The notes under the pieces: generated by a model
Database searches by the model: none
What the model saw: only the letters and a program-made list of their open reading frames with translations
Told to the model about the DNA's origin: nothing
Shown: positions 1,918 through 25,289 of the stretch, in pieces
How the letters are laid out: the number at the start of each line of letters is the position of its first letter
Numbering within the stretch: position 1 is the first letter of the stretch
Position numbers and translations under genes: made by a program
Source: Malacoraja senta
Taxonomy: Eukaryota
DNA: 64,000 bases
NCBI GenBank assembly: GCA_038087875.1
Contig: CM075988.1
Location: 14,510,001-14,574,000 of the forward strand
Reading direction: 5' to 3'

Positions 1918-4082
1918 TTGTATGTATTCAAGTGCGATGGGCATTGCTGGCGTTCAGAATTTATTGCCAATTCATAACTGCCATTGAACTGAACTACTGA
2001 TCAAGTTTATTTCAGAGGGTAGTTAAGATTTGATCAATATTATTTTAGACCAGATAAGGACATCAAGTGCCTTCCCTATATGGCAGTGGTGAATTAGATG
2101 ATTTCTTGCAACATTCTGATAGCCTCATCGTCAAAATTAATTTAATGATACCATCTTCTTAATACTAGATTTAATGAGCAAATATTAAATACCCAAGGGC
2201 TGTGCTGGGGTGTGAACCAGCCATAGGATTAGGTCTTGGAATCATTAGCTTTCCATATCTCGTCCATAAATCAGTAAATTTCCATAACTCTGGATCCCCT
2301 CTCCTGTGAGCTGCATGCTTCTGGTATTTGCTGGTGTTCCTGTTATCAATGGTCACTCTGGTTATCATATGGCAGTGTCATCTCACCCATGCTGTTCTGA
2401 AAGACGAGAACTCCACAAGTGTAAACCTCTAAACCTCAAAACTGTGCTTGACATTTCCAAGGTGCATGCGACACTTACAAAGTGTAGATGACAGCTCGAA
2501 AGTGTAGATGACAACTTTAACATGTGTAAAGGCATCTCTCAGCGCAAGCACAACAAACCCTTTCACACAAGCAGGTACAAAAGCAACTGTGAACATTATG
2601 TAGTCCTTGACATTTCCCCAACAATGGATCAGCTCAATGATGCCGTGTCAGAGGCTTGATTTCGCTGGAATTCATAGGAAGATTTGAAAACTCATGGAGC
2701 TAAAGTTTTCCTGATGGATTGTTTGGACCTCACCTCTTGAGAGGAGGTGCATAAAGAAACAATAAAAAGTGGTCGTCACAGAGTGGATCTGCATTCTTGT
2801 CCCTTCACAATTGTTCTCGTTTAATCACCAATTACAGCATCGCACACCCATGCATGGCTGTATCACAAGTATTACCACTACACATGCACTTTATTCCCCA
2901 TGCATTCCTTCACATAACATTTATCTGAAACAGATTGGGAGTGGGTTATAAAGTTTGAAGATGTTTTCACTCACTCAGACACAAGGCATAGAGTTGTGCA
3001 CCACAGACACAGGCCCTTTGGCCTTCCAACTCTCTTTCACCAATGCCGTCATCCCAATTATCCACATTATGTCAGTATCCCTTTTTGCCTTATTTATTCA
3101 TGTGTTTCAATGAATATGGCGATTATATCCAATTCCATCTCCTCCTCTAGACTGTGTTCCAAACTATAAGTAAAAAAACCTTTCCCCCAAATCATTTTTA
3201 AATTTCCTTCTCACCTTAAACCCATGACCTCTGGTTTTTTTGATAGCCCTATCCTGGCGGAAAAGACTTTGACTACCTACCTTATATCTACTTCTTATAG
3301 TTGTACGCATCTCCAATTGGTAACACCTCAACTAGCATTGTTACAAAACTTACCATCAGCGGCGCTGGAGATCTGCCACTGCCTGCGATTCCAGAGGCTT
3401 TGGGGGGGGGGGGGGGGGATTAAAATGCAGGTTTGTTTTGGTTGTCGGAGAGGGATTTCCTCGGGCTGCTAGCTGATGAAGAAAAATCGTTCGCGCTTCC
3501 GTTCCGCTTTTTTTATTTTCTATTTGCTGGACGATTGCATTGCCGGATTTAAGTTAAATGTGACTTCTAACACCTTCAACATCACAGATCGCAATATCAG
3601 GACAAAACAAAAGGTGTGTTGTTTATTTTACATGTTATCTTGCTTTTTTTGTGGCGTCATTTTAATCTTATGATGTGAAAAATGTTATTTAGGTCCCGAT
3701 ATGAATCGGCCATGTCTTGCCTGCCGATATGGGCTTAAAATTTATGGCAATGGCAACATTCCAATCGATCACATTCCAGAAACATCTACTCGCAAGATAA
3801 TCAAATTCATTATTTTTTTGCCATGTCATAAGAACATCTAAATCATCTATATTTTGTGTTATTGTCTATCCATGATCAATATTTTCATACTAAATATCCA
3901 CAGTACAGTTTTAGTCAGATGTATTGTGCAAAAATTAATGATTTTGATTATCTTGAGAGTGGATGTTTCTGGATTAATTTATGGGAATTAAACTTGGCAT
4001 TTGGCATATAGATTCATGACAAAGTGAGATTTAAAAATCATGTTACATTGTCAATTCTTGTGTGAATGGGATCAGTTTGTTA

Positions 4083-4613
4083 AGGGCCTGTCCCACTTGG
4101 GCGAACTAATCCGCGAGTTCTGGCGAGTGTGCCCTCGACTCATACTCGCAGCATGGTCGACACGAGGTCATAGGAGGTCTTCGTAACTCTCCTTCATGCT
4201 CGAGAGTGGTCTCCGCGTACTCAAGGCCTCATCTAGGTCCCGGAGTTTTTTTCAACATGTTAAAAAATGCCCGCAAGTAAAAAAAGGTCGCCATGGAAAA
4301 AATCGATACTTTTTTTACTCGTAGGTTTAGTCATAGTAGGTCATAGTAGGTCGGCACGTTAGTCATAGGTAATCAAGGGTAGTCAAAGGTAGTCATAGAT
4401 AGTCTTCATCATAGCCAAAGGGAGGTCGAAGGAGATCGTCTTCACTCTCCACTATTCGGTGTCCAATTTTCCCGAAGTTAGTCGTAGCTGGTCTTCAACA
4501 TAGTAGAAGGAGGTGGAAGGAGGTCTTCTACATAGTCGAAGAGGTCTTCAACATGTTATTTTTTCAAACTCTTCTAAACTCGCCAATTAGGTCGCCCAAG
4601 TGGGATAGCCCCT
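4083..4613. mobile_element. PIF/Harbinger-type MITE nested in the TIR element
   Basis: About 37-bp imperfect TIRs (AGGGCCTGTCCCACTTGGGCGA...), TTA on both sides (4080-4082, 4614-4616), and internal catagtcg/ggtcg repeats shared with 23781-25115. Confidence 0.85.
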
Positions 4614-4852
4614 TTAGGCTATTTAAAAAAAAAAAGCCTTTTGTTAAGAAATGGAGAGATGTCTAGATCTAGTAATTGAATTTAGATGAATTTAATTGAT
4701 TAGATGAATGATGAATATGATTTTTTTGTTGGGTATTTACTATTTGTTTTAGCGTTTAACTTTATCATTTCTACAAAATGATAAACCTGCAAATAATAAC
4801 TTTTTTCTGTTAATGCTGTTCAGTGGGTTTTTTTCCTTTACATTTTAAACAG

Positions 4853-5193
4853 ATGTCTCCGAAGAAGAAATGCAAAATTGTCAATCTAAATGCCCAGCAA
4901 AAGAGACTGATTTAGACAGCATTCGCAAAGATTATCCATATTTGGACTACTCCAAATGTGATGATCTACAGGATATTCTTAATGGGAAACTAGTGGGCAG
5001 AAAGGCATGTCGTGCGTGGTTTGAAGAGCAAAAACTTGTAATTTACAATGCCAAAATTGAAAAGTTGAGGAAAAACAAGGTGTACAGAGTTGCTTATTGG
5101 TTACAATCCGAGGAGTATGATGCTACTGATTATGATATGCCAATGTACCAGCTAGCAACTGATCTTCTCCATAAAGACTTGGTCTTTTGCTAG
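4853..5193 (+). CDS. Transposon-borne terminal exon remnant with Spin/Ssty (Tudor)-like C-terminus
   Basis: Pyrimidine tract and acceptor (ttttcctttacattttaaacAG|AT), then an open frame to TAG at 5193, ending LVGRK...YRVAYW...MYQLATDLLHKDLVFC. Confidence 0.55.
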
Positions 5194-5816
5194 AAATTGT
5201 AATTTCTTTACCCGTCTGTTACGGACTTACAGCATTTAATACAATAATATTAAAGTTCTGATCTTGAGAATATCACATTTTTGAATTTTCAAGGCAGTCT
5301 CGGTGTTTATTATTATTTCCGTCACAACGGTCAATTTTATAATTAACTACAATTGGGTAACTAACTAATTATAGGCTTTAATTTCAGGTCATCCAAGTAA
5401 GATGTTTCATATTTGTTTCAGAATGCTTCAATCTATAATAACTGAAAATTTAATTCAGTTCTCTTAATTTTAAGGAAGTTATGGGCTTTTGACCGTCCTC
5501 GACCACAGCTTTTGTGTTAAGTCAATGGAAAAGCAATAGGGAACAAGATGCTAATTTCCGAGTATAAAAATGACCATAACTGTTATAATACTGATGATAT
5601 GGAAGTGAATTAGGTATCAAATTAGTTCTTTTTATGCTTTATATGATGGGATACATTATAGGCTTAAAATCTCAAAATTTTGTAACATTCCTACCTCAAC
5701 ATTCTTTGCTCCATTATCTCCTCATAACAGAATCCAGGCATCAGGTTGATAAATCTTCACTGCATTCTCTCCAGTGAAACAACATCCTCTCTATATTAAT
5801 ATCATAATCCTTAACA

Positions 5817-6093
5817 GGGGTGGCACATTACAGCACCAGAGACCCGGTTTCAATCTTGACTATGGATGCTGTCTGTACAGAGTTTGTACATTCTCCCTGT
5901 GACCGGGTTTTCACCGGGCTCCCACACTCCAAAGACGTACAGGTTTGTAGGTTAATTGGCTTCAATAAACATTGTAAATTGTTCTGAGCGTAGGATAGTG
6001 CTAGTATACGGGGATTGCTGATCGGCCCGGACTCGGTGGGCAGTAGGGCCTGTTTCTGCTCTGTATCTCTACATTAAACTAAACTAAACTCTA
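5817..6093 (+). mobile_element. tRNA-derived SINE (HE1/V-SINE-like), internally deleted
   Basis: B-box-like ggtttcaatc, core ctcccacactccaaagacgtacaggtttgtaggttaattgg, CR1-like tail and (ctaaa)n. Confidence 0.85.
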
Positions 6094-23527: not shown

Positions 23528-23780
23528 TAACATTTCAGATCAGGAAGTCTGAATCTATCTAAAGAAGGGTACCGACCTGAAGCATCACCGATCCATGTTC
23601 TCCAGAGATGCTGATGACCTGTTGAGTTATGGCAGTGTCTTTTTTGGGAAGTGTTACAGAGCGATGATAGCAAATAAAAAGTTTCAATATTCAAGTTTGC
23701 CTGCATTGCCTGATTCAGTTCAGTTTTTCAGCCCTATGTTTTTCTTCAGTTTATTTTTTCAGTCCTAAGCAACAGTCTTA

Positions 23781-25115
23781 AGGGCCAGTCCCACTTTCAC
23801 GACATAATTCACGACCTCTGCCGAGTTTGCCCTCGACTCATACTCGCAGCATGGTCATCACGAGGTCGTAGGAGGTCGTAGGTAGGTCGTAGCAGTTCGT
23901 GATGCTAGTCGTAGGTACTCGTGGCATCAAGTAGGTTGGGGCGTTTTTTCTAGCCTGATAAAAAATGTCCACGAGTAAAAAAAAGGTCGGCATGGAAAAA
24001 ATCGATACTTTTTACTCGTAGGTAGGTCGTAGGTTGGCCGTAGTAGGTCGGAGGTGGTCGGAGGCATTCGAAGGTAATAGCTCCGGGGTGAAAAAAAGGT
24101 CAGTAGAAAAAAAGGTTATTTAAACAGCAGAACGTCACCTCTGTCACTCCAAGGCATGTTTATTCATAGCTGGAGAGTTTTTTGGAGAGGAGACTTGTGT
24201 TTTAGAGATGGCACCAAAAAGGCTGTAGTGCAGGGGGAGAACACAACCCTAAAAAAAAACTGCCATGTAGGTGTTACCCACCCAGGAGGAGGAGTGGAGG
24301 GAGGTGATGCCACAGGAGGTGATAGTGCAGGAGGAGGTTGCCCTGCATGAGAGACCCCTGAAGGAGGAGACCAGGGTGGTAGTATACAGTATGTCCCCAG
24401 CACCACCCCATCCTTCACTGCCTCATTTGAAGGCAGCAAAGCAGCCCTTTCTCCTGTGTCTGACACAGCATCAGAGGCAGATGCCCCATTGGTGGTGAGT
24501 GAGGGCTGGAGGAAGGTTATGCCCTACACCTTCACGAGGCAGCAGGAGGGGGACCTTGAGGAATGGTTCCAGCAGAATGCCATCCTGTACGAAAAGGAAA
24601 ATGAGGGGTACAGGGACAGGGACAAGAATGGCATGCTTGCCATCCACTGCCCCACATGTGTACTTAAAGTTCCATCTTTTGTCAAAGCCCAGCGCCACTC
24701 TCTTCCAGTCATCTGGTGTACTGGGACAGTCCATCACATCATCTCCATTCACTCATTGAGGCCTCTTCTTGTGCTTCCTCTTCACCCTTGCTCTTCCCCT
24801 TCTGCCTTTCTTAAAAGGCTGCTGAAGCAAAAGGGCTACTGCAAACAGCAGTAAAACGTACATGGTCGAAGCCAGTCTTCAACATAGTCGAAGGAGGTCG
24901 AAGGAGGTCTTCTTCATAGTCGTGGGAGGTCTTCAACATAGTCGCGGGAGGTCTTCAACATAGTCGTGGGAGGTCGTAGACATAGTCGTGGAAGGTCGTA
25001 GGAGGGCGAACACATAGTCGTGTAGGGGGTCGTAGGTTTTTTTACCTTGATTTTTTTTAGGTCGTTTAAGGTCGTCAGAGGTCGTGAATTAGGTCGTGAA
25101 AGTGGGACAGGCCCT
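23781..25115. mobile_element. PIF/Harbinger deletion derivative with transposase and Myb/MADF-like ORF remnants
   Basis: TIRs AGGGCC(A/T)GTCCCACTTTCACGAC(A/C)TAATTCACGACCTCTG, flanked by TTA/TAA. Minus strand reads CPSTPDDWKRVALGFDKRWNFKYTCGAVDGKH; plus strand reads FTRQQEGDLEEWFQQNAILYEKENEGYRDRDK. Confidence 0.9.
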
Positions 25116-25289
25116 TAACTAACAGAAAAAAACATAGTTTTTCTAACAGAAAAACTTAGTTTTTCAGCCCTAATTTTTTCTTCCGTTTATTTTTTCAGCC
25201 CTAAGCAACAGTCTAACTATTTGACTAAATGGAGTTTGGTGAATTTTATCTTGCTGTTCCTGTAACTAACCACATCAGTAAGTAACAAA

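Follow-up and report, generated by a model that had tools for sequence, protein, structure and literature searches.

The 64,000-nucleotide stretch of the Malacoraja senta genome analysed here (contig CM075988.1, positions 14,510,001 to 14,574,000; hereafter the window) carries at 3333-5693 a 2361-bp DNA transposon that begins with TAG (3333) and ends with CTA (5693). Its terminal inverted repeats (TIRs) are imperfect 19-bp arms with 84% complementarity, and the 7-bp target site duplication (TSD) CCTCAAC flanks it on the left and on the right. The ends, the imperfect TIRs and the TSD had been recognized in a preceding sequence-only reading, as had a TAA (4846-4848), an AG (4851-4852) and a stop-free frame running to 5193 (4849-5193), and each is indeed present. 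The window copy is an ordinary dead internal-deletion derivative. We propose with moderate confidence, on the basis of structural models and sequence profiles, that the intact relatives of this transposon encode a hAT-type DDE transposase with a Spindlin-like Tudor end, which likely binds the methylated tail of histone H3. The parts of the locus, with long interspersed nuclear element abbreviated as LINE, reverse transcriptase as RT and untranslated region as UTR, are as follows.

3100-3325, resuming at 5701-5810, minus strand: interrupted old LINE, RT tail
3326-3332, unstranded: left 7-bp TSD, read on both flanks and in the TSD census of the family
3333-3351, plus strand: left TIR (5'-TAG), one of an inverted-repeat pair, with the same end in family copies
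3333-3613, plus strand: left arm, a predicted non-coding first exon ending at donor GT 3614 (splicing predicted)
3614-4852, plus strand: predicted 5'-UTR intron with acceptor AG 4851-4852 directly before the transposase ATG
3775-3973, unstranded: internal inverted repeat with 44-bp arms, occurring in other copies too
4083-4613, unstranded: nested non-autonomous TIR element of ~531 bp with TTA flanks, private to the window copy
4853-4897, plus strand: first ~15 transposase codons (MSPKKKCKIV...), in a frame that stops after 20 codons
4900-5193, plus strand: last 97 transposase codons (amino acids 882-978 in the intact enzyme), put out of frame by a ~2.6-kb internal deletion
4975-5190, plus strand: remnant of the Spin/Ssty-like Tudor domain, in which W 5017, Y 5044 and Y 5095 align to SPIN1 F141, W151 and Y170, and D 5161 and D 5176 to SPIN1 D184 and D189
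5194-5674, plus strand: 3' arm, with ~91-92% identity to other copies
5675-5693, minus strand: right TIR (CTA-3')
5694-5700, unstranded: right 7-bp TSD

The insertion had been described as splitting a CR1. The flanks do rejoin as one LINE-like RT tail, which aligns across the junction in three of seven related loci; the CR1 label itself is presumptive. The length of 2361 bp includes the nested element, and typical copies measure ~1.8-1.9 kb.

Copies of the element and its intact parent

A genome-wide search of the kind proposed together with the sequence-only reading, here with the open reading frame (ORF) and the 3' arm, revealed a multicopy family with TIR-bounded copies and full-length elements. 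In the 1.94-Gb genome the ORF query yielded 2279 candidates, 150 of which were scored (86-96% identity), and the 3' arm query yielded 2885, with 40 scored; the family comprises thousands of copies in this genome. Two sets of 30 loci, one picked by protein score and the other by the UTR and sharing a few loci, were used for the TSD census together with 20 long loci. An exact 7-bp TSD flanks 14 of the 17 two-ended protein-picked copies, 13 of 22 UTR-picked copies (five more have one mismatch), and all 16 two-ended long copies, two of which sit in microsatellites. The alternative of an 8-bp TSD at the window copy, suggested in case the right end had lost one base, fails because the right end of the family matches that of the window copy and no exact 8-bp TSD occurs in any sampled copy set of this genome; in two UTR-picked copies an 8-bp reading, with mismatches, is marginally preferable to one of 7 bp. 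The target sites show a tendency towards C-W-W-N-W-W-G, as judged from 77 right flanks. Of 61 metagenome loci, 17 and later 22 were searched for TIRs and TSDs; no convincing two-ended element emerged, and the 7-bp rule is therefore established for this genome only. One relative with 59% identity (L087) has the same right end.

The parent was reached through two metagenome proteins that extend the window ORF upstream; a genome search with this extension gave 150 matches. Full-length 4.27-kb elements with the same ends contain a single 978-codon ORF in 12 of the 20 long loci (L061:4016-6949, L062-L071 and L074). The mean nucleotide identity among ten intact two-ended long copies is 99.8%, which means that their subfamily has moved recently; by their sequence these copies may represent a DNA transposon still active in a vertebrate-type genome. 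The older, broken long copy L077 is nearer to the left arm of the short family than the intact ones (81-87% versus 75-79%, in all six copies compared); its subfamily is therefore the probable direct parent of the short copies.

The long ORF starts with MSPKKKCKIV, which corresponds to the window ATG at 4853, immediately behind the acceptor and in a different frame from the Tudor tail. A deletion common to the short copies has fused codon ~15 to the final 97 codons with a change of frame; of the UTR-picked copies, 22 of the 23 that were usable have the same junction, as do contigs from three organisms. Between the ATG and the stop there are 344 nt in all 30 protein-picked short copies and 341 nt in the window copy, and hence the Tudor tail is out of frame. 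The donor column lies ~280-300 bp from the left end and reads GT, often GTAAGT, in 15 of 17 short copies, without a conserved ATG; the long copies have a pyrimidine tract and TAG at the place of the window acceptor. This arrangement suggests that an intron of the 5'-UTR runs up to the start codon. Contigs of four sequencing runs, which are possibly DNA, gave no GT..AG joint for this intron among the joints shown, a result that weighs neither way.

A third derivative of the family, ~1 kb long and without the coding remnant, was observed at L212:6485-7499, L214:8468-9428 and L215:8250-9294. These three occurrences, all lacking the domain, come from 20 arbitrary 10-kb stretches (200 kb of background), and the derivative probably outnumbers the 1.86-kb form by far.

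The transposase and its place among hAT elements

The full 978-residue protein was assigned no Pfam family, and its profile retrieved only coiled-coil noise from the PDB sequences. Of its 125 homologs 120 were listed; those with a named source come from Hydra, Ephydatia, Patella, Littorina, Asterias, Lytechinus, Lingula, Priapulus and teleosts, and none of those listed carries a transposase name. The AlphaFold model (predicted local distance difference test score, pLDDT, 86) starts with a helical domain and a coiled coil, continues with an RNase H-like core that contains a helical insertion, and closes with a long helix and a small C-terminal barrel. In the Foldseek comparison Hermes occupied ranks 1-10 with a best E-value of 1.6e-6 and a template modelling (TM) score of only 0.19-0.25 of the query, followed by ISCth4. 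In the alignment of 121 sequences D429, D506, C531-x-x-H534 and E784 are 97-100% conserved, C531 and H534 being invariant. The core is thus predicted to have a hAT-type (Hermes-like) DDE fold, in which D429, D506 and E784 likely form the catalytic triad of the RNase H fold.

A CxxH motif after the second catalytic Asp and an RW motif, represented by W319 in Hermes, are hAT features. The first is present as C531/H534; the likely RW-like position reads G606-N-R-L-H (R608-L609), without Trp. With hAT elements and Hermes (PDB 6DWZ, 4D1Q, 8SJD, 8EDG) the family also shares the predicted RNase H-like fold with its helical insertion, the D/D/E residues, short TIRs bounding its copies, and the occurrence of deletion derivatives. 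It differs from them in the long coiled coil, in the C-terminal Tudor domain and in the TSD, which is 7 bp instead of the 8 bp usual in canonical hAT elements (Ac, Buster, Tip); hAT groups with 5-, 6- and 7-bp TSDs do exist (PMC12730594; PMC papers are cited throughout from extracts of their text). A Pfam search at E-values up to 10 detected neither a BED finger nor PF05699, and in the model the N-terminus consists of helices alone and the C-terminus of a beta barrel. In summary, the enzyme acts like a hAT transposase, yet shows no canonical 8-bp TSD, BED finger or PF05699 domain.

Among the catalogued groups, hATw elements have, as we assume, 7-bp TSDs like those of this family, and hATw is probably its name in the Repbase catalogue. 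Hydra proteins are numerous among the transposase homologs, and the hATw label has been applied to Hydra and amphioxus elements (PMC13465017, PMC12905397). The extracts of PMC8721813, PMC12905397 and PMC13465017 contain no definition of hATw, and no mention of a Tudor domain for hATw was met in the literature found. The hATm group also begins with TAG, but was rejected since its TAGGGTG ends and 8-9-bp TSDs differ from those of the family (PMC6004678). Fungal hAT7 likewise has 7-bp TSDs, but comes from rust fungi and clusters with Ac/Tam3, and Kyakuja elements with 7-bp TSDs lack TIRs (PMC12730594). MULE transposases rank below Hermes in the Foldseek comparison (ISCth4, E 2e-3).

The Spindlin-like C-terminal domain

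By sequence comparison the C-terminal domain is the second most conserved part of the transposase, with relatives from sponges to fish: its mean identity of 45% lies below the 53% of the core and above the 28-34% of the remaining parts. Among the 105 homologs covering the core to its end, 81 possess it. A domain profile matched 466 clusters at E-values up to 0.001; among the best 150 of these 466, to which the following counts refer, 138 were new domain-bearing clusters, in 125 of which the domain ends at most 15 residues from the C-terminus, and where over 50 residues precede the domain (70 clusters), 62 match the transposase profile. The model of the 978-residue protein has a single repeat, and one matched stretch was found in 148 of the 150 representatives. 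The proposal that the parent encodes a Tudor/Spindlin-like domain, either in a transposase or in an accessory protein, is thus borne out for the transposase C-terminus and not for an accessory protein. Comparison with the 59%-identical relative indicates purifying selection on the domain (dN, non-synonymous divergence, 0.22; dS, synonymous divergence, saturated; p 5e-12); the contrast with L077 is non-significant (p 0.25).

In an alignment of 212 domains W920, Y929 and Y946 are aromatic in 96-98%, Asp occupies position 969 in 201 of 207 sequences, Asp or Glu position 974 in 197 of 205, and L975 is conserved. There is also a basic loop with the conserved K935 and an extra conserved tryptophan, W947, and the family His (H918) is replaced by Arg in the window copy. 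The Spindlin match MYQL-x2-D-x4-DL emphasized in the sequence-only reading holds in its second half, D969, D974 and L975; MYQL is not a family-wide feature (M in 31, Y in 67 and Q in 45 of 210, L in 169 of 209).

Several comparisons point to the Spindlins. Against the PDB, a profile of 56 domains found Spindlins as 17 of the top 18 among 22 matches (best E 0.015), and with a largely different profile of 77 sequences the 16 highest of 26 matches were Spindlins (best E 0.005). The model of the window domain (pLDDT 95), passed through Foldseek, placed Spindlin1 at ranks 1-9 with TM 0.58-0.65, compared with 0.44-0.46 for the SGF29 and PHF20 Tudors; by VIA, repeat 2 of Spindlin-4 had Z 6.9 and a root-mean-square deviation of 2.1 over 61 residues. 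An hhalign comparison with four host Spin repeats scored 31.0 (88%), whereas 60 column-shuffled controls reached at most 15.3. In the reverse direction, the best match of a Spin profile lay within the last 100 residues in 51 of 61 full-length homologs, 56 of which had any match. The Spindlins (Spindlin1-4, Spin/Ssty repeats 1 and 2, PF02513; PDB 5JSG, 7BQZ, 4MZG, 4UY4) and the transposase domain share the predicted barrel-plus-helix fold, the (I/V)G-x3-H-x-W start and the L-x2-D-x4-DL end.

The likeness extends to residues of known function. W920, Y929 and Y946 align to SPIN1 F141, W151 and Y170, and D969 and D974 to D184 and D189, the SPIN1 numbering having been transferred by counting along the PDB sequence and the host repeat. 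The aromatic cage of SPIN1 comprises F141, W151, Y170 and Y177 (PMC11167732); contacts with H3R2 and the H3A1 amine are made by D184 and D189, and the D184A substitution lowers affinity ~90-fold (PMC3967050). At the fourth cage position the aromatic F/Y959 (aromatic in 88%) may substitute for Y177. The transposase domain differs from the Spindlins in being a single repeat fused to a transposase instead of three tandem repeats, in its identity of only ~15-18%, below the Pfam cut-off, in a longer acidic loop after strand 3, in the extra W947 and in the ambiguity of the fourth cage residue.

A number of results weigh against Spindlin kinship and the function drawn from it. None of the searches was strongly significant on its own, and all E-values are borderline. 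The window ORF alone gave nothing useful in Pfam, PDB or Atlas; PF02513 retrieved only host Spindlin from the genome, and the list of 25 families obtained with the 56 domains does not include it. The Pfam Spin-Ssty model, suggested earlier as a check, thus gave no match above its 25-bit cut-off. The best Pfam hint was the PTM/DIR17 Tudor (5 of 56 domains, best E 2.4e-4), and in Atlas PTM/DIR17 (0.76) and Spin-Ssty (0.75) were level and can serve as leads only. The E-values of the Spindlin profile matches are aided by the three repeats, the best for a single repeat being 0.34. The best Foldseek E-value for the domain was 0.046, phage proteins reached TM 0.57-0.69, and by VIA the RDM15 Tudor (Z 7.0) tied with Spindlin, TraI followed with 6.6 and no chain reached Z 8. 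Finally, hhalign sets the non-aromatic P962 opposite Y177, so that the fourth cage position depends on the alignment.

The RDM15, BAHCC1 and PTM-DIR17 Tudors (PDB 7DE9, 8YE8; PF21743) match Spindlin in structural score, BAHCC1 having Z 6.2, and give the best Pfam hints; 7DE9 and 8YE8 are by their titles complexes with methyl-lysine histone peptides. They are missing from the PDB sequence matches of both domain profiles at E-values up to 10. Overall, the domain is very probably of Tudor type, and it probably belongs with the Spin type.

Proposed function, alternatives and origin

If the domain reads histones, which we favour somewhat over its not doing so, it would tether the transpososome to nucleosomes through its aromatic pocket, and the two acidic residues D969 and D974, like D184 and D189 of SPIN1, would hold the H3 N-terminus. 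The intact enzyme would have mobilised the short copies in trans. One result speaks against this function: insertion flanks are not enriched in CpG-island-like DNA (7 of 77, compared with 32 of 397 background bins), in a test of low power that takes GC and CpG content as a proxy for chromatin. This argues against strong targeting to promoters marked by trimethylated H3 lysine 4 (H3K4me3).

SH3-like domains serve DNA or subunit binding in retroviral integrases and in Tn7 TnsB. By analogy, the C-terminal barrel could be an SH3/Tudor-like module with a structural role, binding DNA or other transposase subunits, its resemblance to Spindlin reflecting fold or ancestry without histone reading. Generic barrels score near Spindlin (the above Z for TraI, 5.2 for TnsB, and the phage TM values of up to 0.69), the basic loop contains K935, the usual hAT C-terminal dimerization domain was undetected, so that the Tudor-like domain could replace it, and the CpG-island proxy gave no sign of a chromatin-linked insertion bias. 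On the other hand, the domain has a conserved aromatic and acidic face (W920, Y929, Y946, Y/F959, E951, D955, D958, D969, D974), which suits a cationic ligand rather than DNA, and the sequence profiles choose Spindlins and no other SH3-like protein. We regard such a module as unlikely, though it is the most serious competitor.

Recognition of methyl-arginine by Tudor domains is well established. The pocket might read methylation on a protein other than a histone, such as methyl-arginine in germline proteins of the PIWI-interacting RNA (piRNA) pathway or in chromatin proteins, and so serve to localise the transposase or to evade silencing, not to select targets. Weak Pfam matches scattered over the Tudor clan, SMN Tudor included, are consistent with this, as is the lack of insertion bias by the CpG-island proxy. 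However, the conserved residues match D184 and D189 of SPIN1, which are specific anchors of the H3 N-terminus, and a non-histone ligand seems less probable still than a structural module.

Very improbable, finally, is that the short element itself expresses a spliced Spindlin-like exon as an accessory protein, or a ~107-residue product from the ATG at 4870, and that this is selectively kept. The frame is open for 114 codons, with the acceptor and the in-frame ATG at 4870, and lineage dN/dS is 0.40 but non-significant (p 0.23). In other species three short proteins (P0132, P0154, P0224) have the transposase N-terminus apparently in frame with the Tudor domain, as judged by eye; they may be independent deletion derivatives. 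The private changes in the 22 UTR-picked copies, 135 non-synonymous and 29 synonymous, correspond to a ratio of non-synonymous to synonymous polymorphism (pN/pS) of 1.09 (p 0.76), with stops in 6 copies and frameshifts in 11; the lower value of 0.48 in the protein-picked copies is an ascertainment effect of their choice by protein score. The remnant thus decays neutrally and is dead, and most likely persists in the window copy only because it adjoins the right end. The spliced Spindlin exon that the sequence-only reading derived from the acceptor and the stop-free frame was rejected, because the acceptor opens on the transposase ATG in another frame, the remnant is neutral, and none of 25 aligned first exons supplies an open ATG in phase for the Tudor frame (the donor column is off by a few bases in six long copies).

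Histone-mark readers are known in integrases of long terminal repeat (LTR) elements and in RAG. The chromodomain integrases of chromoviruses and the PHD finger of RAG2 likewise combine a DDE recombinase with a reader, but with other reader folds and in other element classes; here the enzyme is a cut-and-paste transposase. No report of a histone-mark reader in a hAT-type transposase was found in a search that covered the literature outside Repbase and most subscription journals, and the Spindlin-like C-terminal domain of a hAT-fold transposase with 7-bp TSDs is apparently undescribed. The intact, 99.8%-identical single-ORF copies make its binding and targeting directly testable.

The domain also bears on the origin of Spindlins. 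The Spin/Ssty module has been described as conserved in vertebrates (PMC3967050), and its distant relatives occur here in sponge, cnidarian, mollusc and echinoderm transposases. We consider it rather improbable, but worth stating, that an animal-wide, recently mobile lineage of hAT-fold transposases finds its target chromatin by reading methylated H3 via a single Spin/Ssty repeat and that this mobile module was the pool for vertebrate Spindlins, with their three repeats, and for other host single-repeat genes.

In the same genome, the last reading frame of a single-copy locus (L188:1495-1710, minus strand, equal to G000:C17:1558710-1558925) ends in one clear Spin/Ssty repeat, with E 5e-9 to SPIN1 and 18 bits in Pfam, below the cut-off. 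The transposase profile scores this locus at 17.6 bits, compared with 10.3, 9.1 and -0.3 for the host Spindlin repeats. A large exon ~4 kb upstream on the same strand (L193:8492-9901; L199:2-2278, minus strand) matches DUF5525 (E 9e-56); should a putative join make them one gene, its product would be a host protein that combines DUF5525 with a Spindlin repeat. Single Spin-type repeats, as judged from sequence, occur in at least three settings. Two equally scoring loci were found for the three-repeat host Spindlin, one on a chromosome-scale contig (G000:C1:146910001-146913122) and one on a small contig (G000:C1031:213027-216144), possibly a haplotype duplicate in the assembly.

Two further repeats were observed in the window. 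The nested element at 4083-4613, which we take to be PIF/Harbinger-like, holds internal short repeats and has a related longer copy at 23778-25126. A dispersed repeat of ~270 bp, resembling a short interspersed nuclear element, lies at 5828-6090 and in at least eight other places of the window, with 70-77% identity.

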